Assembly (NCBI GenBank): GCA_030141605.1
Contig: JAQGDQ010000173.1
Span: 186,001 to 250,000, forward strand
DNA length: 64,000 nucleotides
Source of the DNA: Tubiluchus corallicola
Lineage: Eukaryota > Animalia > Priapulida
Reading direction: 5' to 3'
Part shown: positions 21,067-63,830 of the stretch, piece after piece
Layout of the letters: the number at the start of each line of letters is the position of its first letter
Position numbering within the stretch: position 1 is the stretch's first letter
The notes under the pieces: model-generated
Seen by the model: the letters and a program-made list of their open reading frames with translations, nothing else
The model's database searches: none
What the model was told of the DNA's origin: nothing
Translations under genes and position numbers: made by a program

Positions 21067-32277
<11,211 letters not shown>

Positions 32278-34366
32278 GGCATGTGAGTTTATCTTCTAAG
32301 TGCCATCTTGATCTGAAATTATTCTTTGCACTTAACACTCAGATGGTGAACAGCAGTCAGTGAAATATTGTGTATCCACAACAATCTAAAAAAATCTAAT
32401 TTTTCATTTCAGATAGAAAAATTCCAGCAACCGCTAAAATCCAATGGAAACTGATATTAACCTGAATCACTTATGCCCTACTTGTATTGTTTTCTAACAG
32501 TAACACAGTACCTGTGATAAAAAAATCATTTTTCCACAAGCAACTTTTTATAATACCATACTTTTAGGGGTACTATAACTTAACGATTTTTTATAGCTAT
32601 TTATTTATTTGATAAATTCTCTGAATTTCCTTACAAAGTACAATGGGCAACTTACAAAGTAAACTACACATAGTACACCTAAACGGTCAAAAAAGAAAAT
32701 GTCAGAAAGCTCTTAATCACGGAGAAAAATTAAACTCAATCTTGGAAAAGAAAAAACGTACTGGGTATTCCTGCTATAGGAATTTTAAACACACTTAAAA
32801 ACATTGAAAACAAAACTTTAACAGGAAATTTGTTAGTTGTCTATCTAATTTCCCTGACATAACTAACCAAATATTTAAGATAATTTTTGTCCAGTGATTC
32901 CGAGCCTCTCGTCACACTATCACAGTCTATACAAATATGTTCATGGGAAATGGGATAAAGTTCAAAATAAAGTATTTATAGACACGTTAGAGTATAGGAA
33001 AATAAAACAAAGTATATGGTGGCTGAATTTATGCAATTTGGCGCAGAAAACAAAATAGGGCAGTTAGCAATATTAACAAGACCAAAATAAAAATGAAACG
33101 GTTATATTACCGAGCATGAATAGCAGCACTGAAACATGGGCTAGTATGACAAGGCCATTGTTTTTGTCTCTTCGACAATAATAAAAATATGGTTATGTGA
33201 AAAAAGTAAGCTTAACTCACCTTTCTATGAACCAGTCATACTTTTGGCTCTTAAGATGCTAATGAATCAGTCAGCTGGCTGGGTTGTGAGGTAAGAAGCA
33301 TCAAAAACAGTGAGTATGATGAGCTTGAATATATTGGAAGTTTATGGTGGTGGTGATAATGAAAATAGTAACAATGATGTTGTTCTTCTGTTGCAGACAC
33401 AAGTCATTGTACAACATTTTAGTTCCATATCATTAGATTTACAAAACTATCGAACTATCCACTTGACTATTACTCAAAATGCTGAGTGATGTTTAGTTAT
33501 TTGAAATAAACAGTAAATTTTTCTCAAGTTTCCAGATGTGGTTCTGAAGGGGCATTAATGAATTTAAGAAAAGGGAGGTTATTCAGCATCACATTATGCA
33601 AAAGTGTATTTTCTGTAGTATTTTGTGCCAATGTAGAATACACAAATACTTTTATTATGTTGTTGTTGCAGGCATGTGTAAAGGTTTTGATATAAGTAGG
33701 AGTGAGCATTAAACATTAACGTTCGATTTAAATGTGTTTTTTAATCCTTATTCGATTTGAACAAATATCCAAAACTTTGGTATGAAGAATTGATGAAATA
33801 GGAAGAAAATGAAATCAATATTCTAGTTACAACTATTATCTTGCTTCTCATTAAAACAATGTTAACATAACTTTTGCAAAGAAAATAAGTAAAAGAAATA
33901 GATGTCAACATTACAACTAAACTGCATGAGTCACTGTGAACTTGTAGAACAAATCAACATCTTCCTTTTATACACATAACACAATCTACCTGTACTTACC
34001 TAAGTGATTATAGAATGGCATGATACAGACGAGTACAAATAACACAAATGTACTTAAAACGTAAATGTTACATTAGTTGCAAAGTCTTACGTTCCTATGT
34101 GCTTGCATCAAGGTAATTCATGCGATCTTTAAATGCAGACATAGAAATAAAACAAGAGTAATTAGATTTGTAGACAATTTTGTGAATATGAATGTAAATC
34201 TCTTATTCTAAATTAGTGACGGTTATACTTGTTAAAATAATAAAATGTCCTTGAAAATCCGGTCTGACAGTTTTTCATTACGTTTTGTTGTTTCCTCGGT
34301 GTGCACTTTATCTTACTAAGATAGGGACAAATGAATGTCACAGTGCAAGACACAAGTAATGTTATA

Positions 34367-37120: not shown

Positions 37121-40100
37121 ATGATTGACAACATAGCTATTGCTGAGCTTACAGACGATGAACTAGTTGAAGTGCTTAAAGAGTATGGTTTTGATCCCGG
37201 ACCTATTGTAGGTATGTGCACGTAGAACACAATGTAAGCCAAAGCCAATTAAGCTATCTTTTAATTGTTGCCTCAACTGTGACTGTGATTAAAAACAGTG
37301 CAGGCTAATAGTAATTAATAATAACGTTTCGCTCTGCCCACATGCAGCAGTTTACTTTTGGGTCTGTTGTTTTGCAGTTTAAAAGTTTTGTGCCTAGTAA
37401 AAAAGAAAAATATCTGGGTCATATTTTATTAGATGACAATAGAGATGATTTAGATATATTACGACAATGTTCAATTTACTATGGTAGAGCAAATAAATTA
37501 CTCATGAAATTTACTCACTGTTTAGTTAACGTGAAGAGACAATTGTTTAATGCTTACTGCACAACTTTTTATTCTATGTCCACTTGGAGACATTTTTATT
37601 CTTACAATCTTAGCAAACTCAAGGTTGCATATAATGTATCAACACGGAAGCTGTTTAACTTTTCATATGATACGAGCGCGAGATATATTTCTACTAGACT
37701 TAATATTATTTATTTTGATGTGATTCACAGAAAATGTGCATACAGTTTACACGTCAGGCTGAATAAGAGTGAAAATTTTATATGCAAGAGCATTTTAAAC
37801 AGTGACGCAAACTTTACTTCTGTAATTAGACGTCATTGGCGTAGTTTGTTATATCGTTTATTGTTATTTGTGTTATTGTTGTGTGTCATGATTTATCATA
37901 TTATTTGTATTAATTTGTGATGTGTATATGAACTTTGTAAAGTTTGAAGTAAAATATTAAATCTAAATCTAATTTCACATATCCAAGAGTTTAGTAAATG
38001 CATTAGCAAATAAAAATTAGTTACAGTCTAGCCTCGTTATCTTGCCCCTCGTTATGCCGCCAAACTCGTCTCTCGCCATAGAAAGTACCAGGACGGATTT
38101 CCTGCTTTGATATTTACCTCGTTAAGTCGCCACCCTCGCTTCTCGCCCTCGCCACGTCATGCTAGGATGAGTGCTTATGTAAACTATATTCGTTATGTCG
38201 CCAAACAGACAAACTCAGAGGTGAATCGATCAATACATATACCGCGTGCCGATCAATATAACCGCGGTATGTAGACAATGCTGCTGTACTCGATAGACAG
38301 ACATAATTAATCTAGTGTGTGTCTCGCCAGGATTAGATTAGGAGTGCTGTGGTTGGTTAATGCGCAGAGAAACTAAAGCGTCACCGATATCCTTACTCTA
38401 TAACACCAAAGCTACATAGAGGAACACTATGTTAATCAACTATTATGTATATACATATAGACTAACTTCGTTATATTCCCGTTATCTCGCCATACTCGCC
38501 TCTCGCCAAAACTTTGCCCTAGACGTACAGTGGCGAGATAACGAGGCTAGATTGTATATATTTATTTTGGAAAAAATGTAAGTTACGCAGATTTAATAAA
38601 AATGTTTGATGTTACGTACAGTGTTAAATATATGAGTGAGACGGAAAGTTATTATATGTTAAAGGTTCTCGAGTTTTGGAATTGCAAATAGAATTTATGT
38701 ATATTTATGTTAATTTATTTCAACATGTGGAATGTCTGCCAAAATTTCCCAAACCGAAAGAAGCGAGAAATTTCAAAAAATATTTGAAAGCAATATTGCT
38801 GGCTTTTTTTACTGTAGCTACAACAAGGTCTGTGTACGAACGCAAGCTAGAGCGACTTATGACAGAAGATGCTGACAATGAAAAAAATATCAGTAATGAG
38901 GAGCAAACCAGTGACTCAAGGTATGTTGTTTCTTTTCATGAAACTTTTAGTCAAGGTTAATCAAGGGCGTATTAATCAATAGGCTAACTAGGCTATAGCC
39001 TAGTGCGCCTAGATGTGTTTGAGGGGCGTCTCATATTAGAAGATTCTTATTTTCCTCAGAAGATGTGTATACTTTCATATTCATGTAAAAGGCGCATTTT
39101 ATAGCACACCGCAGGCAGTTACTGAACACTGTTATATAAGTGCCACTTAACGAACAGGTGCAAGATATTACACAACAAGCAGTTGCATTGCGTGAATGTT
39201 AGTTCTTTGCAAATGCATGTAATTAATAATGACCACGTAGAAACTAGGTTAATAGTGTTTCCGATACACCACTAGTAATTGTTTAATCTTCTTGTTACAT
39301 GAACAATCATAAATTCACGATATAGAGATGGGCAATATAGCACCATCTGCCTTGAGCGTCGTATTCTTGATACACCCATAAGGCTAATTAGTAAAATCTG
39401 TGTGTTTTGGCCTTGCAGAAAAGGAAGCAATTTAGTTTACTGCTTAAGCAGAACAGACATGCAAGGAAAAGTAAGAAAAATTTCTTTGCTGCATGAGAAA
39501 TGTAAAAACTTTGAATGGCAATAGTTGACAATAGCATGTAACGCCTAGGACATAGTTTAATTATTCAAATTAGGCTTAACAAGATTAACTAAAATGGATT
39601 TAAAAAGAGATTAAATTGGAAAAGAATGAGATTTTGGAATAGGTATTTAGTACATTTTAGTTCTTTATGCTGTACTTTTTCAACTGTCATTTTTATTATC
39701 TAGTAGAGTTATTTACATTTTCCATTTCATCAGTTCGTATAACAAAAAATATTCTGATTTCTTGCCTCCAGATAATAGCTGTCTAAAACACCTGTTCTTG
39801 GTCACACTAATTATAATTAAATAAGTATAAAAGAGCCCATTTCGTGAATTAAATTATTCAATTCTTGAAGTCCTTGTTTGTAATTGAAAGTATACTACAA
39901 TATGACCGAAGATTGGGTTATAATTATTGATATTTTGACAGTTTGTCATTAGATGGCAGAACTGGTACATCGTTCGAATTGTATTATATTAGACGTGTTT
40001 ATTGAATAAAGGACTTCAGTGTTAGTTAAGTTGCCTCATGAAAATCTGTTTCCATTTTGGCTTGCTCTGAAAAATATTAGATAGTTACACTTAAATATCT

Positions 40101-43100
40101 TCAACTATTACATCTAAATCTAACATTAGGCTGAAATAACTGAAACAACCTTATAAATGTTAAATACCTACTCAGTGTCTACAAGAGGTGAATAGTTGTG
40201 CAATGATGAGGTAAGATTTTTTTCAATTACAACTGATAAATCAGGAGGGTGCAAATTATCTGACTAGCCGGGCTACATTAAATTTTCCCGCAATTCCTGC
40301 AGGCCACAGGCAGTTTGATCGAGGAGCCAAGTACAGAAAGGACTAATAACGATTTTTTTTGCATCCGACCTGCGCCCATCATTACTACTCCACTCAAGAA
40401 ACTATTTTAGAAGTTATTAAAATTTATATTACAAACCATATATTTATACTTTCAGGACAGATACTGGTAATTTCATTGCAATGCATATTAGTAATGTGTA
40501 TCACACAGTCTCTGTAGTACAGTGACATTAAGCTACAACCGTCTTGTAAGGGTTAGTGGCATCCGATCTAGTAGAAAAAACTACCTGCACTATCTTTGGT
40601 ATCGTGGCACGGACTTCAGATGGATACACTCAATTAATCGCCCGGGCCGCACTTTCATTAGGTTGACAAATCTTTTCGCGGGCCGCACAAATTCTCTCGG
40701 CGGGCCGCAATTTGCACACCCCTGTGATAAATGCTTCAAAAATACTTTTTGAGAAAACGAATTTTGCCATAATTTCTGTAACAGGTATACGAGATTGCTT
40801 TTCAGATATCAGTATAAATAACAATATTGTTCTTAATATGTTGATGATATGCTTTTAGGTACAAAGATGTATCTCATGTGATGGAATCATCTAAAGACAT
40901 CTCTGTTGATGCTGGTTTTCACATGCGACAATCATTCGAAGCCAAACGGCATACCCGAAAACGGTAGCTGTTGTATTTTTAGTAATACTCGTAATAAGAA
41001 TTATATCTTGCTTGTCTGTGGTATTAGATAAGTTAGATAAGATCACGTGATTGTTTCTTTCATTGTGTAATGTACGTTTAATGTTAATTGAGCTAATTAC
41101 TATCTACATTTATTCAGTAAATGTATTAGTTTTCGAATGTGACGTACAGTCTAGCCTCGTTATCTCGCCCCTCGTTATGCCGCCAAACTCGTCTCTCGCC
41201 ATAGAAAGTGCCAGGACGGATTTCCTGCTTTGATATTTATCTCGTTAAGTCGACAAACTCAGAGGTGAATCGATCAATATAACCGCGGTATGTACACAAT
41301 GCTGCTGTACTCGATAGACAGACATAATTAATCTAGTGTGTGTCTCACCAGAATTAGATTAGGAGTGCTGTGGTTGGTTAATGCGCAGAGAAACTAAAGC
41401 GTCACCGATATCCTTACTCTATAACACCAAACAGAAAACCAAATTTAATGTTGATTGGTATCGTAATGCGAAATATATTTTATATGTACATAGAGGAACA
41501 CTATGTTAATCAACTATTATGTATATACATATAGACTAACTTCGTTATATTCCCGTTATCTCGCCATACTCGCCTCTCGCCAAAAATTTGCCCTAGACGG
41601 ACAGTGGGGGGGGGGGGGGTAATGAGACTAGACTGTAACTTCTTATATAAATTTTCTTTTGAGTATGAAGCCACAGCTATATAATTACTAAATTTAAATT
41701 TTTTGAACATGGTTCCACTGTAATAAACCGCTGATTCCTTGCCTGCCTAAATGACAGTAATTTGTCATCGTAGAAATGCTATTGCGATTGGATGGAGGCT
41801 TTTCTGTTTGAGGAGTCAGGTATCACCAGATAGAGATGCCGTCTCTCCCTATTAAAATTGTGGTTCAAAGACAGTGAAGATGCGCTTTCTGTGCACTAGT
41901 GGCTACTGTTGTTTGTTTAGTGGAACTTTGCTTCTGCTAGGGGTGAGCATTCTCTACCAGAAAGCGAATTCGAATCGAACAGAATTTGTGACTTTCGAAT
42001 TCGAATCAAACCGAACTTCAGTGTTTCGAATTCGAACCAAATTCGAATTGAGATCGAATGATTTCGAACCACCAGGAAAAATTAGTCTTACAAAGATCAT
42101 GCATATCATTAAATTTTGTTCTGCAATAAAACGACTAGTAATTTCTTTAAAGTTGTGTGCAGAAATCACAGCTAAATTATGCTAATTGCATGATGTTTCA
42201 ATCGTTTTAGTGATTAAGAACATGTGTGATTGAAGTGCTGAATTATTCGAATCTATAGTTTTGGATTCGAATCGAGTTCGAACTAAAAAAACTCGTTCGA
42301 ATCGAATGTTCGAACTCGAACGTTCGATGCTCACCCCTAGCTTCTGCGTGATTGGTACATAAAACATGTTAATGACTTAGCTTATTATTGCTACTCTGAT
42401 TATTTCATGCAGTAGCTTTACTGTCTTGTGTTTCTCAGCTCGCAAAGAGAAATTAATGACAACTGTTTATGTTATTTAATTCCAAGAATCATGAATTTAA
42501 TTTATAATATACTGTTGTGGAGATCGCTGACGTCAAGTAGAACTGCATAGAACATCGTAGAACCGCCTTACCGTCCGTCTGGATTGTTCTCGAACATTTG
42601 TTCGAGAAGTTTCTGCAGTGCGCTATATATGGCGAAGATGGCGGATCGCACATTGCACACAGATCTTAACACGGACATATACTTGTATACTTACCTTTTC
42701 AGATATACTTAATCGTTTTCCAGATTTTCACGTTTAGTATAATCATTTCTTGTTCCTTCATCTTTGTGTTGTAAGAATTCTCGCTCAATAAAGTAATAAC
42801 ATTTAACGGTGTGTATTCTGGTTTTCTCTACGAGCCTTCCGAGAGAAACAAAACACAACGTATACATTGGTAACAGCTGTACAAAAAAGTTGAAATCTAA
42901 ATCACACTTATACGTAAAGGGTCTGCAAAACTCGCCTAGTTCCAGACTAATATTCTGAAAGTCTTGCACTTCAGCTTTTGAGGTCCTTACAGTGGTACAT
43001 TAGCTTAGTATATTCTACTATTGTACCCCATATCTGTAGTAAAACTTAAACACAGTAATACGGCCTCTTATTTCAAGTAACGAACTAGTTCAGCATAAAT

Positions 43101-43457
43101 AATTACAAAAATATCCTGCATGTAACAGAGATTTTTGTATTCGCCCCATTCTGCTTGTGAATATTATATACTCTGTGTGTAATTTTTATGTATATTTGTG
43201 TTGAACCTATAATTATTGGTGAACCATATTTATCCGTTTTCAGCGAGGTACCATCCCATGCCGAGTCTACGAAAGTTCACAAAGATGAAACGAAATCTGT
43301 GATTAAGCAGGAAAATAAGAAGATGTCCTGGTTATCAATTTGGGTTCAATTAGTTATATTGCTTGTCATGGCTGCTCTTGTTTACCTAGTGATTATGAAC
43401 ATGGAACAAGTGCAAGAAAGTCATATTCCTCGTTTGTCTGATGCTGATGTCGTCTAA
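37121..43457 (+). CDS. LEM-domain protein with C-terminal transmembrane anchor (emerin/LAP2beta/LEMD1-like), at least 170 aa
   Basis: Exons 37121-37211, 38818-38920, 40859-40963 and 43244-43457 splice in frame. The LEM motif is ELTDDELVEVLKEYGFDPGPIVATTRSVYERKL. The TM helix is WLSIWVQLVILLVMAALVYLVIMNME. Extra small internal exons are possible. Confidence 0.88.
37342..37975 (+). mobile_element. 5'-truncated LINE (RT thumb and ORF2 C-terminus)
   Basis: The ORF contains KYLGHIL..D..DI.RQ...YGRANKLL.KF..C...VKRQLFNAYC.TFY and KLKVAYN, typical of non-LTR ORF2. It is followed by a short (TAAATC)n tail. Confidence 0.8.
38024..38554. mobile_element. pogo/Tigger-like MITE, family F, copy 1
   Basis: TIRs CAGTCTAGCCTCGTTATC / GATAACGAGGCTAGATTG, with TA TSD. 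Confidence 0.88.
40242..40724. mobile_element. hAT-like MITE, family A, copy 3
   Basis: Same family, with 8-bp TSD TGATAAAT. Confidence 0.9.
41147..41635. mobile_element. pogo/Tigger-like MITE, family F, copy 2
   Basis: Same family as 38024-38554, with TA TSD. Confidence 0.88.
41938..42339. mobile_element. hAT-like MITE with TTCGAA-rich ends
   Basis: TIRs TAGGGGTGAGCAT / ATGCTCACCCCTA, with 8-bp TSD GCTTCTGC. Confidence 0.9.
42513..42860 (+). mobile_element. Solo LTR
   Basis: Termini TGTTGTG...CACAACG (CA mutated to CG), 5-bp TSD TATAC, an internal TATA-like CTATATAT, and AATAAA at 42787. Confidence 0.75.
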
Positions 43458-44834: not shown

Positions 44835-45154
44835 ACTAGACAGCTAAATTGATCACTGTGAGTAGTTTTGAATGTACTCAACTAGACAGCTAAATTGATC
44901 ACTGTGAGTAGGGTGAGTAGTTTTGAATGTAGTCAACTAGACAACTAAATTGATCACTGTGAGTAGGGTGAGTAGTTTTGAATGTAGTCAACTAGACAGC
45001 TAAATTGATCACTGTGAGTAGGGTGAGTAGTTTTGAATGTAGTCAACTAGACAGCTAAATTGATCACTGTGAGTAGGGTGAGTAGTTTTGAATGTAGTCA
45101 ACTAGACAGCTAAATTGATCACTGTGAGTAGGGTGAGTAGTTTTGAATGTAGTA
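44835..45154. repeat. 55-bp minisatellite, about 6 copies
   Basis: Unit ACTAGACAGCTAAATTGATCACTGTGAGTAGGGTGAGTAGTTTTGAATGTAGTCA. The first copy lacks 9 nt. Confidence 0.95.
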
Positions 45155-45957: not shown

Positions 45958-46516
45958 GTAAGTTACCTTAAAGTTTTTGTTATTACGACGTCCCGGCTTA
46001 CACGATTTGGCCATTATTAAAAATGATTTATTTGCACAAACATGCAAGTCACTACTACACTTGGATTGTTTATAGCAATTCTCGGACATAAATCACTATC
46101 ACCAAGATATCCACTTTTAGAAACTTTACTCACAGTAAATTGACAGTGTGCAGCTAATTCATATTTAAACGAAATGCTAGACTGTTGTACATTCTTGTTT
46201 TCGAAAATGACAGCTAGGTGCATATATTTATAATGCAAGTTGGAACTAACTGAGTAGCAGCACTGAGTGGACCCAGTAAAACGTGAGAGCTGTGGTGTTT
46301 TTAAACAATTTACCCCTAAATTGCACCCGTAGATTTAAATGCCACATGTGCATATTTATAACATTTTAATAAACTTATTAATAGCGTTCAGAGCAGTAAT
46401 AATTATAAGTACATACACCAAAGCAGCAGCCTAGTGTACTAAATTTATTGCATTATGATGATTAGACTAAAGTTTACAATTCCCCATACACAATAAATTA
46501 GTCTGTGAAGCAGACT

Positions 46517-46581
46517 AGGATTAGGGTTGAGGTTAGGGTTAGGGTTAGCTCTAGGGTTAGGGTTTGTTTAAGATTAGGGTA
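46517..46581 (+). repeat. Degenerate interstitial (TTAGGG)n tract
   Basis: Sequence TTAGGGTTGAGGTTAGGGTTAGGGTTAGCTCTAGGGTTAGGG...TTAGGG. Confidence 0.75.
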
Positions 46582-47297
46582 TTTAAATTGTTTGTGGAAT
46601 TGTAAACTTCTTCCAATGATTATTATAGCCATACTGCATGTTTTTAATAGCTTTGAAATACAGTATTTCTGTGTAATGTGGACATAGTTTTGTATGTGTG
46701 TACAGCAATGTTATGTGATGTGAATGCATTATATGAGAGGCGCTGCCACAACACGAGTTATTGTTGTGTCTACAGGAAAATGCATGTGAGTTGGGCACAG
46801 TTGGCCCTTCATGTGTGTCAGCATTTCTCCACTAGCATGGTCATGCCTAGAAGGTTTTCAGATTGAGGAGTACTTAGCAAATAAGTTCCTCGTGTCATGA
46901 TCCCATTTTATTGTATTTACCTGTATAACTATATATATAACACATATAGACATAATTATGCTCTTTTCTGTTTGAAAGCCCTGAGATGCTCGAATGCAGA
47001 TCTTGTATCGACTGTTGCATTAACAGTTTTTTCATTATTAATTAAATACCATATTGTTAAATTATGCAATAAAGCATCCATGAGTCTATTTATTACCACA
47101 GAACAGAGCTTTCCATTAAATTCATGTGCGATTTTACAAGACATTTCAGTATTTGCACTTCTTTGCTTTTTGTGGTGGAGGACTTTGCTTTTTGGACCTT
47201 TCGCTCTATCTTGGTGCCAACTTGTTAACCATGTAAACAAGCATTTTGGTTCTATCTTCAGTGCATCATATAGAACACTGACCGCCATTTTTCAGCC

Positions 47298-50200
47298 ATG
47301 GAAACTGGAGGTGGTGATGTTCCATCTACCGTCAAGGTGCTGAAAGGGACAATAGTGAATGCAAGATATGCTAGTCGACGAAATGTGAGTTACTAATTTG
47401 ATGTCGCATGTCATGTTATTAAGTTCGTAAAAACAACCAAATAAATTACTCAGTTGTCAGTGGGTTTATTTTTCCTAAGTCTGATAAAAAATATTCCCTT
47501 TTGGTTACTTTGTGAATAATAATAATAAATAAAGAAAATTTGCGGTTATCACAATTACAGATACAAATACACATGTAACGCTTTTCCTACATCCTCACTA
47601 ACTTTCTGGTCAAAGATTTTTTTCCAGGGGTCTGAAGTTCAAGGTCAAAACCTTGGTCAAAAGGTCATCAACTGAAAATCATCATATAGATTTGAGCTTG
47701 GATTTGGATTCTAGGTATTTTTCTGATTAAAAAAACACCTCTCACTTGAATTTTGGTGCAGTAGGTGTTGAGATATGAATTTTTGAAGTTTCAGGCGAAC
47801 GCGAAAGAGTGCGAAAAGCTCAAGTTTTCAAATTGTCATAACTTTTGAATGGGTGGACCAATTGACCTAAAATTTTGAACATAAATTATTGTCAAAAAGC
47901 CCAATAACCGTACCAAGTTTCATCAAAATACGAAATGGTCGGGGGTAGATAATCCAAAATTTTTGGTGAATTGACATGGAATGACCCTGTGGCCAAGTCA
48001 GCCATGTTTGAAATGTCTGAGGTGGCATGCAAAAAGTTGCCTGTTAATGCTTTATACATGAAAGAGCATTTTGAGGTAGGCAGTTTAGTATTTTGTTGCT
48101 CTGTGTGGTGCACCTGTGGTTGGCAATCATGCAGTCAGGGGCGTCGTGCACCAAAAAAAAATTGGGGGGCCCGACTGTATATAATGGCGGAACTTAACTG
48201 TTTAAAAAACGTATAATTTTGAATTCCCATACAGTATTTTGCGTGCAAGAAAAACGATTTATTTATTCCCAACTGGCATTTAACTTCAAGCTATAGCAAC
48301 GGAAACTTAATTAAAATTAAAAATTAAATTAAAATTTAATTAAGTATTTATTAGCTGTCAGGAATCCAAAGATTCGGCGAAAAGACATAGTAGGAGAAAA
48401 ATGATGAAATGTGCTCAAAATCACGCCCTTTTATGCAGCAAACTCCTGGGAAAGAGTCGCTAAGGAGTAGCAAAGAGTGGGCAATGTCCAATCAGGAGGT
48501 AGCTGAGCCGTGGCTCATCAATTTGTATCTCCCAAACCGACTCTCTGGTACTAGGCTAGCTCAACATGACTTCAATGTTTGCATTGTTTTCGCTCTATTA
48601 TTTCACTTATTCTCTATTATAACACACTGCTGAAGGAAGCTCGAGTGCTAACTGAGCCGTTTTGTTAATTAACAGTCTTTTGTACAAAGACGCTAATGCT
48701 ACTCAACGAGCTGGTTTGTTAACTGTTCCTGCCTGCCTCCTGAATAGATTACATGCAAACAAATTAACTACATCCTGACTTTCAGGTAAACACATCTGGT
48801 CAGGCACGTATTAACAGTCAGCATAATTTAACTCGGCGACAAACTTTAATGATAAAAAATATTATTGGGCTACTGTACCGAAACGCTCATACTGTTCGCA
48901 TTTATGGAGCGCTGGCCCGCTATTGTGTGTCAAAAAGTCAGAAATAAATTTGCTTACCGTTTGCCATTTTGACATTTTCTAAAAAATTGGGGGGGGGGGG
49001 GCTATAGCACGACGCCACTGCATGCAGTCTTTTTATGGACTTAGAACTTATCTGTGTTTGAAATTTAAGAGAAGCCTCAACAGATTTGGGAAGCAAATAT
49101 TACATAGAGATGTCTGTGATGCATTCCGTTTGTATTTACAGTGTCTTCTCTGTATAGTAACAATTCTGTCCTTTTGTTTAATATTTTGCCACTTTGATGG
49201 AATGTGAAAAACATTTTAAACATAGATAGCTTTTAAAAAAATTTGTTTTGATTTCTGAATTTAACTTATTTGATTTAATTCAAGATTACTAAATTACTAT
49301 TTTTTTCCAAACACACAACAAAACTGTATATTTCTTCAAAATTAGCGAAGATGCGCACAATCTTGTTAATGCTTTAAGCAACCTTCTAAAAGTACCGGTC
49401 ATTCATCATCCAATAAATGTGGCTGGTTGTGTGTCAGAATGTTATTTAACTCCCCATGGCAGATCTGCAATACGGATGTTCAGAACAGAACATGCTTTTT
49501 GAAGGTAGGTTTTGGTTATTCGGCAGCTCCACGTTAAGCAGAGGTCAGTAGAATCAGTAAAGTCAGTATTTCATAATCTGCACATTGTCGATCCAGATTT
49601 TATGTGGTTACGTCATGATTTTCACATTAGGGACCACATTTTGTATGTTGTCGCATAACTTACACGTTCTGGACCAACTGTGCATGCACTACTGTATAAC
49701 CTGTGCAATACAGACCCACATTTCTAGTGTTGTTACATGAGGTCACCACTTAACTACTGCATATGTTTAACATTTCTAATCAATGCATGTGTCTCAAACA
49801 GCATAAGTCATGAGATTTGTCACTGTTGCTTGGCAAACTGTTGTTATCAAATGTTGTTACTTATTAGGTATATCCCATGGATTCCACACCACGCGGCTAC
49901 TGCTTGATCATTAATAATGTTGAGTTTGATGCAAGAAAAGTAAAAAATGAGTATGACATGATAGTTGACTTCAAACCAGAAACTAGAAAAGGTTCTGATG
50001 TGGACGAAGTAAAGCTAAGGAGTCTGTTTGACCAACTGGGATATGTTGTTGACCCAACACAGTCCAATCTGACGTCTGAGGTATGATACAGGGCAGGTGT
50101 AGATACAGCCAAACTGATCAGATGAAATTTTGTTTGTTCAAGCCTCCATATGAAGTCCACATATTACATACTGAATACAGAAAGCTATAAATTGTAAAGC

Positions 50201-51888
50201 TTGTAGCACTGTTGGGTAATAATAAAACAATAGTAACTGATTACTGTAGATGCTTAGATACTGCTATCATGAAACATTAATACATTACTTTGGCTGGCCT
50301 GTAGTGTAACAAATTCTGGTTTTCATTGACTGCATTTGGTACACACCATCTGTTTTTGTTGTATAGTACAAGCATGCAGTTTTCATAATTATCAGATTTA
50401 ATTTCTCCTTATAGTTTACCTAAAATCTAAAAGTCATTTGCTGCTGTAAACTTTGGTAACTTTACATGCTGAAAATTATTTTAAGTTTTGCAGAGATGCA
50501 TCTGTAGGGAAATACATAGTTGTCTGGCAAAGCAGCAGCACCGTCACATCTCCACTTCTAAACATCGTAAATTATAGAGACCGAGTGTTAATAAGCCACC
50601 AGATTTTTTACTATTTCAATATTCTTTACAGCCAGTTTTTGTCTTCAAATACTGGATTCAGATAATTCGCTTTTTGGAACATTGAGCGGATCTTTTGATA
50701 GTATTACTGCTATTTATACTTATGCAAATTTTTGTTTCAGCAAATGCTGTCTGTCATTGAAAAGTTTGCGCAAGATACTAAGCATCTTAGTGTTGATTCA
50801 TGTGTTGTGGCAATACTAACCCATGGCAACAAAGGTGACCTGTTATTCACTAGAGATGGCCACTTGGACTTTGTTGAGCAGATTTTGCCTTTATTTAGTG
50901 GTAGGCCATTGATTATTTTAAAAGTACATATAATGGCATTGCTTAATGATAATGATATTGCTTTAACGGCATTCTTAAATAATTTACCGTAACCCGAAAC
51001 ATGGTTAAAGTACGACTGATTTTTTTCAGTTTTTGTGTCGAAGCCAAAGCTTCCCGTTTCATTAGGACACCCCTACCAGTCTAGATTTAGTTCCCGTCTA
51101 AGTATACAGGTATAGGTTTAGGGTTCACTTTATTAAATTCACAGCCCCCAACAATTGGAATAAAATAAGTGCCCAAGTAAAAATACACAAAACTATTTAT
51201 AGTTTTAAAAAGTACTTGAAAATGACCATTTTTGATTCATACTTATAATACAATTTTAATGGTTCCATGTCTCATGCAGCCCCAATATATGGCCTCCAAT
51301 CAATTATAATGCTATTTTAATATACCTCTATGTAAATTAAACATACACTGTGGTCGTTTCTTCTCCTCTTTTCCTTCTTCCTATCCCTAATCTTACTATT
51401 TTTTCCATTCCATTATTTCTTCTGACCCTAACCATTCTTTCATTCACTCATTTCTGCCACCTTAACAAGCCAAGCTTTCAAGGTGTCATACAGCAACTCT
51501 TTCATTTGGTTAATTTGACTTCATCAACATTTTTTTTTACCCATACTGTTTCTTTTTCTTCAATAATATTGAATGTTGATGTATTGTATATGTATTGCTG
51601 GAGTAAAATAAATTGATTGATTAATTCAAGGTGTTTTTATTTAAGATTCCACAGAGACGTTAAATTACTTTTATAGTTGATTTTGAGATTCATCTAACTT
51701 TTTCTCGAGTATGCGTTTAACTCATTCTACTGTGACTTAGCATTTCTTATTCTTACATATAGGATATTTGAGTAAATGCAGTGTCAATGTGCCCAGTTCA
51801 TATGCTGTACATTTATGGTGACTGAAGCCTTGAAAGTTTGATGTTTGCGATTTGATATATATATATATATACATTAATTATGTATATA

Positions 51889-51932
<44 letters not shown>

Positions 51933-54900
51933 GGTGAATGCTAAATAATGATAATAATAAATGAATTCTTAGGACGCAGTGCTGTGCATTTGTCTGGGAA
52001 ACCAAAAATATTTATCATTCAAGCTTGTCGTGGAGGTAGGTTTCTATTGTTATTTTTTATTTTTTTTGGAGTACTTTTAAACATTTATCAGTAAATTTAA
52101 TGCAGTTTCACTGAGCTATATATTGCCTTGCAAAAATAATGGGCAGTAACTACAAAATGTTGCTTTTGAGAATTGTGTGAAAAGAGAAGCAAAGCCTAAA
52201 GATACTGCTATTCAATCTGCAGTAAAAATGAAGTTACTTTACCGTTTTCATTTCTGTACACTGAAGTGGTAATTCTGATAGTCGTGCTGAGCAGTTACTG
52301 CCTATAATTCTGCAATGGAGCTAGTTTGTGCATAGCCTATGAATGGAAGTTACTTAATACACAAAAACTATCGCTTATAATAAAATTTCATAATAATAGC
52401 AAGAAAGAGCCATTTGTTGGGTAACACCTGTTCTAAATTAGTGAACTTCCTTGAGGAATTGGCTTCTAGCAGACACAAAAATGCTCTAAAATGCAGCAGA
52501 GTGCATTGTTGGATGGGGCTCCACCCTAGACCCCCCTAACTTCTTTCATACTGGGCCCACCGTTGTTCTAAAATCTGTATTCATCCCTGATTAGCCAGAA
52601 TGAATTCTGGAGACTGAATTATTCTCCCTATTCAGATGAGAGCCAGGAGCCAATTGAAGTATCCAAGCCGTCGGAGAAACGTTCATTTCCTGCTGGCGCT
52701 GATCGCGGAGACGACAAACTAACTCAAGATTCAGGGATCAGTTTAATCGCAAAGCAGAGGATGCCGCAAAAGACAAAGCAACCAAATGTTGGAAATACAA
52801 TTGTATGCCGAGCATCTGTGTCAGGTAATGTATCAATTTTATTCCCTTTTTCTTAAAAATTTAAGCATTTGCTTCTGTAACATTTGTCAAGTTAACAAAT
52901 CTTAACTCATTTAATATGTAATAAAGGAATATCGGATATGTTGCATCAGGTGAGAAGCTATTAGGATTGAATGAAGACATTTTTGATTATTAAAAGCTAT
53001 GTGGCTAATAGTATAACAAAATGTTTCACCTGTATAATCTGAAGGTGCCTGATTGAAATCCAGTACTAGTCCTGAATTTTTTCATTTCATTTTGTTCAAT
53101 CAAGCGGTTTAAAATATTTAATTCTAGAGGAGTCATTCAACCCGTGATTTATTAAACTTAGCCCATGTGTGACTAATTGATCCTTCTTTGATGCCTCTTT
53201 GATCCTTCGTGTGTGACGGAAGTAGCTGTGGCCACCGTGAAAAGAAAGTCGCATAGAGGCAGTTCTTATGGTAGTGATTCCTACCACCCCTTTACTGTCC
53301 AGGCTTGACGTTGCTTAATATCGGTCACTAAGCACTCACCTTGACCACCTGGCTGTCTCTGTCATGGTGTACTTATTAAAATAAAGGTGGTTGTGGTAGG
53401 ACCGGAATCCAGATTATCATGGCAGATAATCTTGTAAAGTGAGATGACCTGCTAAAGTTGTCTTGCCACTTCAGGTTTGTGTACTTCCTTCCTCTTTGAG
53501 GTAAATACCGTAAAGTAGTTTTCTCGATGGTCACCATTCATTTACTGGCCAGACTTTGTGTTGCTCAAGTTCAGTCATTTTTTACTTCGACACAACACAT
53601 ATTTCATATATCGTAATAATTACACAATATTTGAAGAATATTATCACCTGAGACTGAGAAACTTAATCTATTGATACATAAATGATTATTTTAAATCTTG
53701 TTCCCAACATGCCAATATGTCTCAAATCACTTTGAAGGCAGAACTCGTTAGAATGATTTGTTAGCAAAAAACGAAATATTAGAAAGAAAGAAAACAGAAG
53801 AAACAATGAATCAGTTTAGGATATAACTAGTTAAGCAGAATTTGAAAGGATTACTAAGGAGGAGTTAGTGAATGGCTGCTATGATAAAGCAATGACTCAA
53901 ACTCAAATTGTAGTGTGATTAATTATATTATATCAGGTTTTAGTTCAATGAAATTCTGTGCTGCTGTAAAGTTCACTATTTGGATCTGTATTAATAACAA
54001 TAGACTCATTAAGCTGCAATTAAGTACTGGTCCTGCTAATATGATAATGACGTATCTTCTTATGTATTAATCAAGACAAATTAAGACACTTGTTATCATG
54101 ATAATTGTTAAATTTTTCTGACTAGTAACATAATTTAAAACTTTTGATTGATATAGCAGATTTAACAGTAAGATTTAAAGTGTACCTTAATGACGTATAT
54201 GTGTACTGTAATGTGTATCCTATATATGTAATAGAATGTTTAGCCAGTTTTGATTTACAGTAAGGTAGCAAAAGTCTTGACGTAATGATAACACTGCTAT
54301 ACTACAGCTTCCTAGAGCCCCAAATGATGAAAAAATCCATTTTCATGTTACCAATTTTTCATTAGCGTTGTTTTTGGCTGTGTAGGATATGCTTCGATGA
54401 GGTCTGAAACTAGGGGTACATGGTTCATCAGAAAACTGGTGACAGAGTTTGCGCAGAATGCTAGCTGTCTACATATTCATGAACTAATGACTAGGGTGAG
54501 TTGATGCTAACGGTGCACCAGAACCGGCGAAAATTCTCCTGGCGCCCGGATCCAAAAATTCTACTAGTACATTTCAATAAATAATCCTGCATGATACTTG
54601 TTATCACTAATGCTTGATAATCAGTTCTTCACAATTAACAGCCTTCCTTAAATTTATTTTGAATAAACAGATCAGATAAGTTTTAATGAAACAAGAGATA
54701 TTTAAATTACATGATGACTAAAACGCAATGTGGGAAACCTTCGCTTGCAGTGTGCACAGGTACACGTCTGCTACATTGAGTAGAGAATAAATGTATCTTT
54801 CTGTATTTGAGGAAGCTGTGAAAAAACAGCACAGTGAACCAGTAGGAAATGAGTCCAAAATTTTAAACAAGAAACACTGTTGTCCAAAATGTTGTCCAAA

Positions 54901-57900
54901 CACGAGCTACCATCGCCAAACTATAGCTATTGCTGGTGCTATTGCAAAACAATTGTTGTCAATGGGCAGCCATTAAATATTATTAATAATAAGGGTCTTG
55001 CATTTGCTGTAGCTTAGTTTGCAGTCGTCTGTGTGATTCACTTGTTCTCATTTGTATGTTCTCACTCCTTTGTCTTTCCAGGTAAAAACAGATGCTTTTT
55101 GTCAGCATTCCCCAATCTTACAACTATTTTGGCGCGATCTGCAAGAGGAGGAACATCCTCCCAGCTGGCAGCAGTCATGCTTGACATATTTCTACAAAGT
55201 TAAAGATTTATGTTAAATGCAGTACCAATGTACACAGCATTAGGTGTAGAACTCCTTTTACTAGTTTGTTTTGAGGATCTTGGAGGTAAATAATATTCTC
55301 ACCTCAGGGTCAGAGGCCACAGCAGCAAGACCCAAACTGTGAAAATTAGGTCGAATAACTTTGTCACTCAACTGATCTTATAGTTTTAGACTAGGACCCA
55401 CTGTTATGTATATATAGGTTTTTGGGCATGTGCATTAAGAGTAGATGTGCATTAAGTATTTTTTGAAAAGTGGGCATTTGCCAGGTCACGTGACATGAGT
55501 GAAAGTGTTAAAATGGGGCCTGGTCAATAAATCCATAAGTGTAAGAACTAGAATCACGAAACTTTCAGGGGCACTTAACTTGCGCAGCTACAGAGCGGTA
55601 CAGGAGTGAGTACATATTTATTTAGGTAATCAAGTACGGAAAATTCAGTAATAGAAAAATTATGAACTTGAGACAAAGATCAAGTCAAGAAAGATTTTTC
55701 ACAGTCAGCAGTTGCAATTTTGCCATAATGCAGAATCTTAAGTTTTGACTTTGTTAATGACTAAGTTCATGACTTTGTCATAAACACGGTCTAGTATTAT
55801 TTTTCATTGCTTGCTGTTAGTACACTAACCATGCGCACTAGCTAGTGTGGCACACATTAGAACCGAAGTTGGGATAGCAACTTTTCCCCTAAGAACCAGA
55901 AAGATATTGACATGCTGAGAACAGTCTCAGATTTAAATATTCATCAAAGTGCGTTGTTTTAGGTACATCGTCAAGTGTTTGAATTGAAGGGTCGACAAGA
56001 GAGGATGTGTGCAGATGGTGCTAGCTTTGAGAAGTTTCTTGTTACTCAAGTTCCCGAATTGGAGTCTTCATTGATGACTCGACTATTTTTCAATCCACCA
56101 CTTGTAAGTGCCCAATTTCACATTGTAAGATGCATATAAGTCCTATATCACATTTTTTACTATCAATACTTGTTGCAATAGATACATTTTTGTGTATAAT
56201 ATTTAAAATTATCAATCAGCGTTTTTAAAGTTTGTTATGTAGTTTACAATTTTTCTGAACAACAGCGTTATGAAAACTGTTATCTTACTTCCTTGTAAAA
56301 TCTAAAACTGTTTAGGAAACTGGTCCAGTAGGATTAGGTGGAGCACTTGCTTACTGGCACTGGATTGGTTATCCTGCAGTTATCAAGGATGACTTTGTAC
56401 GAGAGATATCAACATGGAAAGAGAATGAAAGTTTGGAGCATGTCATCCCGAAACAAATTATTGTCTATTCACAAAGCTGTCTAGGAAGCCGTGTTTCTGA
56501 TGAAATTGGCAAGTTTAAGAAAGCTGCTAAGGTGTTTAACGTTACAAAAGATATGGCCGGTATGAAAGGTCGTAAATACGGAGTTACGGTATGGCCTATC
56601 AGGTCGGACGAGAAGAAATTCTATGTTGCAGTGGACTACCCGAGTGCTATAAAAGCCATTCCAGCCAACACTAATAATATCCGACAGCAGCTAGGAGAGG
56701 TAGCTGCATTTCACAAGACGTTGCAAGACATTGTGACACAGGAAGGTGCTGAGTCAATTCCATTTGTGTTGCTACCATATGACGATGAACAGGAGACACT
56801 TAGAGCTATCTTAAAGGAAGCTTGCAAACAGTTCGAAAAGCCTAACTTTGTCGTGGGTTCCTGTTTGAGGGGTCCAGGCACTGGCTGGGATTTTCCTGCA
56901 TGGGTGACTGAGTCAGATGCTAGTTATTTTAATCTCACTGCTGAGATGCCAGTCGGATTTCTTATAGCAGAAAGGTCTGTATGACTTTTTCCTTCAAGTC
57001 CTGTTCTAGATTGTGCAAAGTTTCTGATGACTGCTATTAAAATTTAACTTTTATAATTGTCAAATTTATAATGACATTCAACTTGTTCGTCAACTTGCAC
57101 TTTTTCTGGTACAGGTATGCTGGGCATTATTTCCACAATTATTCAATTAATCTTCAAGAGCGTTTGAATCAGTTTAAACGGCCAGGTGCACAGCAGAGTG
57201 TCGAGTCAGACAGTGATGATGACGATGATGAGGATGATGAACTGATGGAAACAGACGACCAGGTATGCAACATGTATAATCTTGCATCACTAATAGAACT
57301 GTGTTGTTTATAGTATTAGTCTCTTTTAACTGCTGTGCTAATCCAGTGACTGCACATTGTAATGAAGAGATTTTAATAGTTAAACATCTGATGTTTTTAA
57401 GCCTTTGTCTATCCAAGTTGTTTATTTTTCTAAAATGACATTGCAATGTTATTGGCACCAAAACACACAACGAACAGAACAGGAATGACAACAAGGAAAT
57501 GATTTCCAAAATCTGCATAATCCAGAAAATGTTTAAAGAACCACTGAAAAGGTTCATTTCATAGTAAATTTTATTAGAATGTATGAAGCTGAGCAAAATG
57601 GCACTGCATTGGCAGCATCTTAAGGCAAATGTGACAGTATTGGCACCTATTTTGTGCTTATAGAAGAATGTATCTGGAGGTTTCCATCCATCTAATGATG
57701 TTATTGCTTTTTTTAATTTAGGTCTTGGTTTTAATTTAGTGTATAGATTAACTGAACTTCAAGTACCAATTTACTTATATGAGGAAAAGTATAACTAAGA
57801 GAATGTTTTTTCTTTATAAATATCTTAGTAGGAGCTTTTTTGTTCAGCTAGTGAAACTATAAGTGGGAAAATCATTAGGTTTGAGCCATTTTACTTAATT

Positions 57901-58692
57901 TAAAACGAATAACTAGTAAATATCTCATTATTTATTTGTTAAAAAATTGCATACCAAGGAAAACTTCTAATGACATCTTTGGATTCAGTTGCAAGTGATG
58001 TGCTTTGCCACTACAGTTATTTTGTATGTAAACTGTGGTGACCAAGTTCAAGCTTTTGCCCTTCTAGCATTCACTGAGTTAGTGCCACCATTTTCGGATA
58101 ATTCTTCCTGACAAAAAACAGGACGCCGATTTATGATTATGGATCTTTTTTTTGAGAAAACGCAACAATGTAAGCATCTTTAGTCAATTTAACGATTTTG
58201 TTTTTTGATTTTAATTTTACTTTTTCGTAACAGGGTGTTAAATTTACTATCAACAAACTGCTGGTTCTTCTTCCGTCATCCTGTATTGTTCTTGACTCAC
58301 TGGAAAACGTAGCAGGAGTAGAAGTCATAGGCAACACAGACAGTCTACAGGGAGATTCTGCCAAGATCTTTCTTTCAGATAAGCAGAGATACGTTGGGCA
58401 CAGTACAGTATACAAGCTGGATGACGACTACTTTATTGCTGAATTTGCTACGCCATTACGTTTCCTCAGATACATGCGAGAGCATGGAGTGCTAGATGAC
58501 AGTTTGCTCAACACATTCTATGAGCAGTTCTGCATTAGACTGGAAAGTTTACTGGACGAGAACACCATATGGGAGAAAAATTTTCAAGTGGTTACTTACA
58601 ATGACATGCGCAAGACTATTGGCCCGCCGCTTGTGACCGAATTGCGTGGTATTTTTGCAGCACAGCGCTCTTGCTTGGTGGAAGGAAAATAA
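47298..58692 (+). CDS. Caspase-STING-STING fusion protein (peptidase C14 + two TMEM173/STING ligand-binding domains), 742 aa
   Basis: Exons 47298-47384, 49868-50080, 50741-50900, 51973-52035, 52636-52824, 54386-54495, 55963-56103, 56316-56974, 57115-57262 and 58234-58692 total 2229 nt. All introns are GT-AG, phases are consistent, and there is no internal stop. Caspase motifs are followed in frame by two STING-like domains. Confidence 0.88.
48136..49020. mobile_element. hAT-like non-autonomous element
   Basis: TIRs CAGGGGCGTCGTGC / GCACGACGCCACTG, with 8-bp TSD CATGCAGT. Confidence 0.9.
51080..51620 (+). mobile_element. LINE 3' fragment (ORF2 C-terminus and 3' UTR)
   Basis: Encodes FIKFTAPNNWNKISAQVK...YSFKKYLK, an ORF2-end-like peptide. 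The UTR is shared with 5988-6670 and ends AATAAATTGATTGA. Confidence 0.7.
53100..53370 (-). mobile_element. Possible tRNA/5S-derived SINE
   Basis: The minus strand has a tRNA A-box-like CAGCCAGGTGGTCAAGG followed by TTAAGCAACGTCAAGCCTGGACAGTA, similar to the 5S rRNA internal control region. Boundaries are approximate. Confidence 0.4.
56331..56830 (+). other. STING-like ligand-binding domain 1
   Basis: Motifs match human STING in the same order: LGGALAYWHWIGY ~ VAHGLAWSYYIGY; KQIIVYSQSC ~ RLYILLPLDC; AGMKGRKY ~ AGIKDRVY; VAVDYPSAI ~ VLEYATPL; FHKTLQDIV ~ FCRTLEDIL; FVLLPYDD ~ CRLIAYQE. Confidence 0.85.
56947..58660 (+). other. STING-like ligand-binding domain 2 (split over 3 exons, with an acidic insertion)
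   Basis: Motifs: VGFLIAERYAGHYF..NLQERL ~ VAHGLAWSYYIGYL..ELQARI; KLLVLLPSSCIVLDSL ~ RLYILLPLDCGVPDNL; HSTVYKL ~ SNSIYEL; FIAEFATPL ~ VLEYATPL; FCIRLESLL ~ FCRTLEDIL; FQVVTYND ~ CRLIAYQE. Confidence 0.88.
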
Positions 58693-58865
58693 TGATTAAA
58701 TCTATGGTGTGCAAAAAACTTATGTTAGCATAATTAATTTTCTTTCTACAGGTAGTCATTGACTTACAACCTATGCGACTTGCGACTGTTGGACTTTACG
58801 ACACAACCGCAACTAATTATACGAATATTAATATTATACATGTTATAGTATAATTATCATATATA

Positions 58866-60363
58866 TCGTATATATTAATTTTGCTGGTATATATATATAT
58901 ATAAGATTCGAGGCTACATCTTTGACGACGGCACCATTTGCGGCGATCTATATATCAAAAGAAAAGTCTTGATCTAGTGTCGTGCCATTGGGGGTTTATT
59001 TTTCGAATCGGGCCCACCGGGAGGAACAGGGGGTGCAAAAAACCTCCAAAAATGGCCATTTTTCGGCCGTTTTTTGCAAAAAATTGCAAAACTTATACCC
59101 TTATTTCTAGAGAACGGAATGTGCCAGGAGCGGTGTCAATAATGGTTAGATAGCCCATTCAGCGGTGGGTGTAGTAGGCGTATTTAGAATACGCGAGAGG
59201 GCCTCGGTCTCCTGTAACGGATGTTTTCCCGGACCGATCTCCCGATTTTTTCGAAGTTTTGGGCAAACAGCCTATAGGAAAAACGTTCTAGCGGTGTTCA
59301 GTGGCACTCTTGGAAGAGATATACACCTCTTTAGAAAAAGGAAGAACAGGGCTACACGATGATGTGGGCCGTGCTTTAGAACACGTCCACCAAGAGGAGT
59401 GCCGACGAGTTAATTAGATGTTCTATTTTCGGCAATTTTCGCTTGGAAAACTGCTGACGCAGAGCTATTGTTCTGACATCATCCATTATACTCTGCTTAT
59501 AACCTTATAACTTTAGTTCAGTAAAAGCTGCTGCTCGCTTCACGTTGTAAATGAGGACCATGTAGGATGTTCGCGTATTTTTTATTATAAGTGGATTTAT
59601 ACGCAATTTTTGCAGGGCCTTTGCTAGTCTATATATTAATTTCTCTGGTATGTTATATATATATATATAAGATTCGAGGCTACAGCTTCAACGACGGCAC
59701 CATTTGCGCCGATCTATATATCAAACGAAAGGTCTCGATCTAGTGTCGTGCCGTTGATGGTTTATTTTTTGAATCGGGCCCACCGGGAGGAACGGGTGAC
59801 GAAAAATATTCAAAAATGGCCATTTTTTGCAAAACTTATACCTCTTACTTCTTGAGAACAGGAATGGGCCGATGGTGGTGCTGGCTATGGATAGATAGCC
59901 CGTTCAGCGGTGGGTGTAATAGGCATATTTAGAATTCGCGAGAGGGCCACGGCCATTTTCCTGGACCCGATTCCGGATTTTTTCAAAATTTTGACCAAAC
60001 GGCCTGTCGAAAAAACGTTCTAGCGGCACCTGGTGGGACTCTCGAAAGGAGATATATAGCTCTTTAGAAAGAGGAAGAACAGGGCTACACGATGACCTGG
60101 GCTATATTTTAGGACGCTCCCTTCCAGAGGAGCTGTGATGAGTTGATTGGAGGTTCCGTTTCGCACGATTTTCGCTTGGAAAACTGCTGACGCAAAGCCA
60201 TTGTTCTGACGTCATCCATTATACTCTGCTTATAACCCTATAACTTTAATTCAATAAAAGCTGCTACTGGCATTGCTTTATAAATGAGGACTATGTAGGA
60301 TGTTCGCACATTGTTGATTATAAGTGTATTTATACGAAAAAATTTTTGCGGGGACTTTGCTAG
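58866..60363 (+). mobile_element. Head-to-tail dimer of non-autonomous Helitrons (58866-59627 and 59628-60363)
   Basis: Structure A|TC...CTTTGCTAG|TC...CTTTGCTAG|T, with no TSD and subterminal hairpins. Confidence 0.82.
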
Positions 60364-63066: not shown

Positions 63067-63830
63067 CCAGACTCAAAAAGCTGCTGTTATACTTACTGGA
63101 AACCCTCCGTGCTCTTGGATCAGCCACCAGACTCAAAAACGCTGCTGTTATACTTACTGGAAACCCTCCGTGCTCTTGGATCAGCCACCAGACTCAAAAA
63201 GCTGCTGTTATACTTACTGGAAACCCTCCATGCTCTTGGATCAGCCACCAGACTCAAAAACGCTGCTGTTATGCTTACTGGAAACCCTCCATGCTCTTGG
63301 ATCAGCCACCAGACTAAAAAAGCTGCTGTTATACTTACTGGAAACCCTCCATGCTCTTGGATTAGCCACCAGACTCAAAAACGCTGCTGTTATGCTTACT
63401 GGAAACCCTCCGTGCTCTTGGATCAGCCACCAGACTCAAAACGCTGCTGTTATACTTACTGGAAACCCTCCGTGCTCTTGGATCAGCCACCAGACTCAAA
63501 AAGCCGCTGTTATACTTACTGGAAACCCTCCATGCTCTTGGAGCAGCCACCAGACTCAAAAACGCTGCTGTTATGCTTACTGGAAACCCTCCGTGCTCTT
63601 GGATCAGCCACCAGACTCAAAAAGCTGCTGTTATACTTACTGGAAACCCTCCATGCTCTTGGATCAGCCACCAGACTCAAAAAACGCTGCTGTTATACTT
63701 ATTGGAAACCCTCAATGCTCTTGGATCAGCCACCAGACTCAAAAAGCTGCTGTTATACTTACTACAAACCCTCCGTGCTCTTGGATCAGCCACCAGACTC
63801 ATAAAACGCTGCTGTTATACTTACTGGAAA
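63067..63830. repeat. ~60-61-bp tandem repeat, about 12.5 copies
   Basis: Unit CCAGACTCAAAAAGCTGCTGTTATACTTACTGGAAACCCTCCRTGCTCTTGGATCAGCCA, with no spacers. Confidence 0.95.

Follow-up and report, generated by a model that had tools for sequence, protein, structure and literature searches.

A predicted single-chain fusion of a caspase with two STING domains in the priapulid Tubiluchus corallicola

A 64,000-nucleotide (nt) stretch of the genome of the priapulid Tubiluchus corallicola (assembly GCA_030141605.1, contig JAQGDQ010000173.1, positions 186,001 to 250,000 of the forward strand; hereafter the window, numbered from its first letter) carries at 47298-58692, on the plus strand, a ten-exon gene predicted to encode a complete caspase followed in the same chain by two STING domains. 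Judged from sequence, the fusion is a genuine single polypeptide and not a splicing artefact. We give about an even chance to the reading that its product is a soluble immune receptor-enzyme, in which a nucleotide messenger would bind the STING pair, cluster the molecules and activate the caspase by proximity.

An earlier sequence-only reading of the window had proposed ten phase-consistent GT-AG exons and an open reading frame of 742 amino acids (aa), and this model was confirmed: the spliced frame is 2,229 nt long with one stop, and all nine introns are GT-AG and consistent in phase (Table 1). Exon 8 contains STING domain 1 (approximately aa 324-495), a linker of about 35-40 aa and the beginning of STING domain 2; an ATTAAA is found at 58695, 3' of exon 10. 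The Pfam check that had been suggested, run exon by exon, placed Peptidase_C14 (PF00656) on the caspase exons and STING_LBD (PF15009) on exons 8 and 10. Against the curated cut-offs (21.4 bits for Peptidase_C14 and 27 bits for STING_LBD), exons 2, 3 and 6 scored above and exon 4 slightly under (20.3 bits), while exons 8 and 10 reached 40.3 and 39.2 bits, respectively. Exons 5, 7 and 9, scanned singly, matched no Pfam family, and exon 9 on its own matched nothing in PDB; exon 9 aligns with all relatives, and its acidic tract is also present in Priapulus proteins. Splice-site scores are not decisive for the exon model, since with a leave-one-out matrix true donors were outscored by 2-96 of 687 decoys and true acceptors by 7-271 of 675. 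It is homology that carries the model, which was accepted because it aligns end to end with two relatives, P0001 and P0003. An alternative donor at 56978 was ruled out because it breaks the frame, and a 48-nt candidate exon at 58122-58169 was rejected for containing a phase-0 stop.

The relatives also speak for the union of the two parts. A search with exon 8 against longer proteins yielded one match among 1,422 candidates, namely P0001, a 655-aa protein with Peptidase_C14 and STING_LBD on a Logan contig of 2,188 nt. As a 655-codon frame leaves no room for introns in 2,188 nt, this contig is probably a transcript. The junction peptide, FNPPLETGP in the window model, reads FNPPVETGP in P0001 and is continuous in the relatives. 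Further searches gave three matches among 4,953 candidates and six among 7,155, and were accompanied by a full HMMER scan and cluster look-ups. Three Priapulus caudatus RefSeq models, XP_014670077.1 (LOC106811066), XP_014664583.1 (LOC106806925) and isoform X2 of LOC106806933, carry the caspase with both STING domains, and they and P0001 share both the layout and the FNPP junction, in agreement with the single polypeptide proposed earlier. Of the other Priapulus models, XP_014669128, XP_014672625 and LOC106817462 X2 contain the STING pair with at most the caspase end, and XP_014673590 is a caspase-only piece. Full-length relatives show PF00656 and PF15009 only in Pfam, with no TIR effector domain, and P0001 and P0003 likewise start with a short N-terminal peptide. 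The window protein is 40% identical to P0001 in the caspase, 52% in STING domain 1 and 55% in domain 2; the corresponding values for P0003 are 40%, 31% and 38%.

That two adjacent genes, one for a caspase and one for STING, were wrongly merged is scarcely credible: the 56103/56316 junction is not directly seen in a transcript of the window locus and three Priapulus models have little or no caspase, but the intron-free frame of P0001 has the same junction, a stop lies ahead of exon 8 (whose first Met is aa 401), intron 7 contains neither AATAAA or ATTAAA nor an ATG-started mini-exon, and P0002 and P0004 open with the last caspase strand. Five ATG-started candidates were listed in intron 6.

Sequencing runs were compared with the locus at 85% likeness. 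In run X2, guessed by software to be RNA, one spliced contig joins exon 1 to exon 2 (joint 47386/49871), and two gap-free contigs lie over exon 10 at about 86-88% identity; exons 3-9 are without X2 cover, which carries no weight either way. The X2 contigs are about 10-14% different from the window, so either a paralogue or a related species may be their source; a close copy of the window gene is probably transcribed and spliced. The 167 nt that precede exon 1 in the spliced contig found no placement within 46500-60000, so an upstream exon probably exists; an AG stands at 47294-47295, immediately before the start codon. Run X1 behaves as DNA, with a contig unspliced across 56026-56345. Its depth reaches 114-134 at 52363-53264 and 56873-57323 as compared to 3-20 in many other bins, and a deep X1 contig over exon 5 leaves out 4+5 letters, which may point to paralogous gene copies or repeats.

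The caspase part had been described as complete from its motifs, and so it appears. THG is found at aa 127, QACRG at aa 170, ETRKGS at aa 67 and SMRSETRG at aa 241, so that the His-Cys dyad (His128 and Cys172) is present together with Arg69, Arg243 and Gln170, which we take from caspase structures to form the Asp-specific S1 pocket. By these residues, the caspase is predicted to be catalytically complete with an intact Asp pocket. Moreover, the predicted model of a relative matches caspases at E values of about 1e-15. No N-terminal death-fold prodomain was found in the 29-aa N-terminus of the window model or in the relatives, and a scan for death-fold families among the plus-strand open reading frames of at least 42 aa between 43878 and 47340 gave 0/14. 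Among the 43 scanned of the 150 best P0003 matches (mainly high-ranking longer proteins, plus four with long C-terminal tails), a CARD was found in 23, a DED in one and a C-terminal Death domain in one. In a quick tree of 55 caspase-domain rows, the four fused caspases tested formed one branch, with a value of 88 in the Shimodaira-Hasegawa-like approximate likelihood-ratio test (SH-aLRT), placed among CARD-bearing caspases; the deep branches of this tree are open, and it contains no named reference set. A single fusion origin from an initiator-type caspase appears likely.

Residues 322-742 had been proposed to form two STING-like domains, and both the sequence profile and the fold predicted for a relative point to a STING fold in each. 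When the STING part of P0001 was modelled by AlphaFold2 from an alignment of 10 rows (mean predicted local distance difference test score (pLDDT) 62.7; predicted template modelling score 0.50), every row listed by Foldseek was a STING. When aligned to human STING by VIA-align, residues 5-177 of this part gave a Z score of 14.6 (root-mean-square deviation (rmsd) 3.2; 169 residues aligned) and residues 213-405 a Z score of 14.2 (rmsd 3.3; 156 aligned). Animal and choanoflagellate STING proteins scored Z 12.7-14.6, bacterial ones Z 8.3-9.4 and the best non-STING row Z 5.7. In a model of full-length P0001 (mean pLDDT 63.6), the caspase was confident and STING domain 1 weak. By sequence, the best match was the oyster TIR-STING (3.7e-12). 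ESM Atlas returned no usable match for the STING part of P0003, with structure rows at template modelling scores below 0.3 and a poor model. When compared directly, domains 1 and 2 were not significantly similar by BLASTP (E 0.71) and only weakly so by hhalign (17% identity, E 0.004, probability 8%), so their kinship rests on each matching STING.

Across the three lineages, 39 of 167 columns are invariant in domain 1 and 53 of 200 in domain 2 (23-27%), much as in the caspase large subunit with 43 of 145 (30%), whereas the linkers have 1 of 51 and 3 of 40 (2-8%). This suggests that the STING fold has been kept under a constraint comparable to that on the caspase. The absence of transmembrane (TM) helices and of a pLxIS tail, also claimed earlier, was borne out: the top 19-residue hydropathy is 1.62, at aa 592 and on a predicted beta-strand, the four N-terminal helices of canonical animal TM-STING are absent with the caspase in their place, and neither LxIS nor pLxIS occurs in the window protein. 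Lack of the pLxIS tail is expected in invertebrate STING, according to an excerpt of PMC13144350.

The residues lining the ligand pocket were compared with oyster, anemone and coral STING over a family set of eight sequences. The GLAWSYY stem and human R238 are given as important for STING in an excerpt of bioRxiv 10.1101/2025.09.04.674280. Domain 1 of the window protein has the stem ALAYWHWIGY as opposed to the canonical GLAWSYYFGY, has Met in place of the first lid Arg, keeps the second lid Arg and Tyr, and reads DYPS for EYAT; the lid pattern G-x-x-x-R-x-Y and the stem G-Y are kept. In domain 2, the stem is LIAERYAGHY (aligned by eye), EFATPL is kept, and the lid is remodelled with an invariant Arg; E[FY]ATPL and the lid Arg are each present in 8/8 sequences. 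Because these residues depart from those of canonical STING, the ligand may not be 2'3'-cyclic GMP-AMP (2'3'-cGAMP). That the halves are unequal and connected by a linker of 35-40 aa suggests an asymmetric dimer.

Under the receptor-enzyme reading, the two STING domains would represent the halves of one asymmetric STING dimer, formed within a chain or between chains, and would hold a nucleotide second messenger between them. The ligand would close the lid and lead to side-by-side oligomers, as in other STING proteins, with the STING pair substituting as clustering module for the CARD of an initiator-type ancestor. The caspase would then dimerise, cut itself, possibly at LTQD206-S (a linker site that presumably resembles those of caspase-3/7), and cleave an immune substrate. 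STING-driven clustering is the likely switch, given that the caspase appears to group with CARD-type initiators yet lacks a prodomain. As to the output, the sequence-only reading had named the protein a candidate death protease, and the ecdysozoan STING-caspase link that has been tested speaks against this: in Drosophila, oligomerised STING acts through FADD to switch on the caspase DREDD, whereupon Relish/NF-kB is cleaved (PMC13144350, in excerpt). Because of this result, we consider cleavage of a Relish-type NF-kB and cell death about equally plausible as outputs.

Several observations weigh against this mechanism. The structural models are of moderate confidence and were built on a relative and not on the window protein, the other four models in the STING-part prediction scored 41-48, and the SH-aLRT value of the fused branch falls under the starred level. 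The canonical pocket is complete in neither domain: the stem Ser is replaced by Trp in domain 1 (8/8) and by Arg in domain 2 (8/8, by eye), the first lid Arg of domain 1 is Met or Leu across the family, the second is Lys in six Priapulus sequences, and the stacking Tyr varies as Tyr, Phe or Leu. The differences between the domains are themselves conserved, with each domain holding its own motifs in all eight sequences. Since the stem is altered, the first lid Arg of domain 1 lost and the lid of domain 2 remodelled, the case for cyclic-dinucleotide binding is weakened. Finally, two of the five caspase-bearing models are without catalytic parts: P0001, the closest relative found, has neither the catalytic His nor the second pocket Arg, and the isoform P0157 has no QACRG segment. 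Three more Priapulus models (P0002, P0004 and P0158) are without the large subunit.

These departures can be read in other ways. A reading that we hold tentatively, with clearly less weight than the first, takes domains 1 and 2 as a single-chain asymmetric pseudo-dimer whose remodelled pocket would read a non-canonical nucleotide and gate the caspase in a SAVED-CHAT-like manner, with dead paralogues tuning the response. As a further part of that reading, and again possible but not probable, the protein would be the STING-FADD-caspase pathway in one chain, old and shared by lineages 30-50% identical. It is also conceivable, though doubtful, that the STING pair no longer binds nucleotides and switches the caspase as a protein-binding module, either as decoy bait for STING antagonists of pathogens or by docking to canonical STING once that is activated. 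The bulky Trp or Arg at the stem Ser position and the lost lid Arg would suit such a module, the expansion to six or more loci in Priapulus, roughly 81-97% identical, fits a fast-turning immune family, and Drosophila STING oligomers recruit their caspase through protein contacts (PMC13144350, in excerpt). However, the pocket-lining residues of the lid and the EYATP region are conserved across lineages 31-38% identical, which a kept pocket explains more easily.

It is unlikely that the family acts as a regulator or sink, binding the messenger or pairing with other caspases so that proteolysis is dispensable, much as cFLIP pairs with caspase-8 as a regulator. The defective models listed above would fit this role, particularly P0001, whose STING domains are still 52-55% identical to those of the window protein; yet the catalytic His and Cys and both Arg are complete in three of the five caspase-bearing models (the window protein, P0003 and P0005), and fragmentary annotation may explain why some Priapulus models are truncated. 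Very improbable is a constitutively dimeric, effector-like caspase activated by upstream cleavage and only localised or restrained by the STING pair until cut off: the N-terminal peptide is short as in effector caspases, the clusters nearest to P0001 in ESM Atlas are caspase-3/7-like (at 0.80, a lead only) and caspase-6, -3 and -7 are among the top Foldseek rows, but the sequence neighbours are mostly CARD-type initiators and the FNPP-LETGP junction offers no Asp at which to free the protease.

Among known systems, the nearest are the Priapulus caudatus proteins, which share the order of caspase, STING and STING, the FNPP junction, the domain-specific motifs and the acidic insertion of domain 2; they differ in being 31-40% identical to the window protein, and are predicted, 'uncharacterized' records that assign no function. 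The TIR-STING of Crassostrea gigas (PDB 6wt6/6wt7), the top Foldseek row, likewise joins a soluble N-terminal effector to an animal-type STING, and an excerpt of PMC11103948 mentions oyster TIR-STING-TIR-STING proteins, in which each domain occurs twice. In the window protein, by contrast, the effector is a caspase, one effector serves two adjacent divergent STING domains, and the pocket is non-canonical. The Drosophila STING-FADD-DREDD-Relish pathway is similar in that activated STING oligomers of an ecdysozoan recruit a caspase and thereby switch it on, but it consists of three proteins with a membrane STING and a DED-bearing caspase-8 homologue, whereas here the caspase, apparently closest to CARD types, is part of a single soluble chain. 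SAVED-CHAT of the type III-B CRISPR system of Haliangium ochraceum, in which filaments induced by cyclic triadenylate (cA3) activate the protease (bioRxiv 10.1101/2023.06.23.546230, in excerpt), fuses a cyclic-nucleotide sensor to a caspase-like protease and is the best model of how the window protein might work; being bacterial, with a SAVED sensor, a cA3 ligand and a CHAT protease, it is analogous and not homologous as a system. Excerpts of other sources name TM-, TIR-, hydrolase- and trypsin-STING together with a bacterial STING-peptidase precedent (PMC10732462), a fungal PNP-STING (bioRxiv 10.1101/2025.09.04.674280) and TRADD-N-STING (PMC8195603). The bacterial and fungal fusions also join STING to an enzyme effector, but they carry a single bacterial-type STING, while the window pair scores nearer to animal and choanoflagellate STING. 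In its presumed mode of action, the window protein resembles SAVED-CHAT and TIR-STING without being a member of either group; all sequence tests make it a caspase, and it is also a STING-fold protein with a non-canonical pocket.

The possible novelty raised by the sequence-only reading stands in part. No description of a caspase-STING fusion was found in the literature searched, whose coverage did not extend to Morehouse 2020 or to Burroughs and Aravind 2020, the latter reportedly a survey of STING fusions that may list this layout; RefSeq already contains the architecture itself, in Priapulus models labelled uncharacterized, though apparently without a description. The five supplements of PMC10732462 gave no match for Priapulus, Peptidase_C14 or caspase, and an excerpt of PMC10855445 names no further STING fusion type. 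The layout is rare, being present in three lineages in the collections searched, and Priapulus is the sole source of named relatives for the STING pair. Among the 150 best matches of P0003 out of 1.84 billion representatives, only P0005 and P0001 fit the family STING profiles; as that list is dominated by caspases, distant STING-only relatives could fall below it. Of 112 pattern matches to exon 8 in metagenome contigs, none was confirmed. No cGLR was seen in the 67 window open reading frames scanned, a set that is not an exhaustive annotation.

Other odd caspase layouts were encountered along the way. P0119 (1,063 aa) has an N-terminal caspase (32-274), a RIG-I-like helicase and a RIG-I C-terminal domain, a parallel sensor-caspase fusion. 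P0103, P0013 and P0021 include a caspase with a C-terminal Death domain, ankyrin-caspase repeats (Sanderia malayensis), and a Priapulus model with an RPA1 N-terminal domain, a CARD and a caspase that is possibly a merged gene model.

The remaining features of the window are given at the end of Table 1. The LEM-domain protein upstream of the caspase gene is one that we take to be emerin/LAP2-like, and the 60-nt tandem array retains several long open frames. Just downstream of the gene, at 58900-60000, two copies of a high-copy repeat lie about 750 nt apart with an X1 depth above 10,000, probably a transposon fragment.

Table 1. Features of the window; amino acid numbers refer to the predicted 742-aa protein
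Feature	Positions	Strand	Description
Exon 1, coding part	47298-47384	+	aa 1-29; short N-terminal peptide, no prodomain
Exon 2	49868-50080	+	aa 30-100; large subunit of caspase, pocket Arg69 in ETRKGS; PF00656 4e-06
Exon 3	50741-50900	+	aa 101-153; catalytic His128 (codon 50822-50824); PF00656 4.8e-05
Exon 4	51973-52035	+	aa 154-174; catalytic Cys172 in QACRG (codon 52026-52028); PF00656 5e-04
Exon 5	52636-52824	+	aa 175-237; linker between subunits, putative self-cleavage site LTQD206-S, beginning of small subunit
Exon 6	54386-54495	+	aa 238-274; small subunit, pocket Arg243 in SMRSETRG; PF00656 4.4e-05
Exon 7	55963-56103	+	aa 275-321; end of caspase fold (RLFFNPP); aligned to P0001 and P0003
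Intron 7, caspase/STING junction	56104-56315	+	212 nt, phase 0
Exon 8	56316-56974	+	aa 322-540; PF15009 2.7e-10; PDB 8ydn 3e-06, 6wt6 5.7e-06
Exon 9	57115-57262	+	aa 541-590; STING domain 2 stem helix, acidic (poly-Asp) insertion
Exon 10	58234-58692	+	aa 591-742, then stop; STING domain 2 core, containing EFATPL; PF15009 5.9e-10
TET-family dioxygenase gene	689-16131	+	two very long exons; Tet_JBP 5.2e-10
PAK-type kinase gene	21067-32295	-	PBD 1.4e-12, Pkinase
Small LEM-domain membrane protein	37121-43457	+	C-terminal hydrophobic segment; upstream neighbour of caspase gene
Tandem arrays	63067-63830, 5404-5952, 44858-45153		periods 60, 22 and 55

If the protein is gated by a ligand, it would be a ready-made nucleotide-switched protease for biosensors. 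The fusion also allows a link from STING to a caspase to be tested on a single soluble recombinant protein by means of a fluorogenic substrate. Its unequal STING pair could reveal how an asymmetric pocket selects an asymmetric or new messenger, which symmetric homodimers cannot do directly. How STING signals in invertebrates without the vertebrate tail is an open question, to which the fly answer (FADD and DREDD) dates from 2026. A natural caspase-STING fusion is evidence for a hard-wired link from STING to a caspase in an animal lineage.

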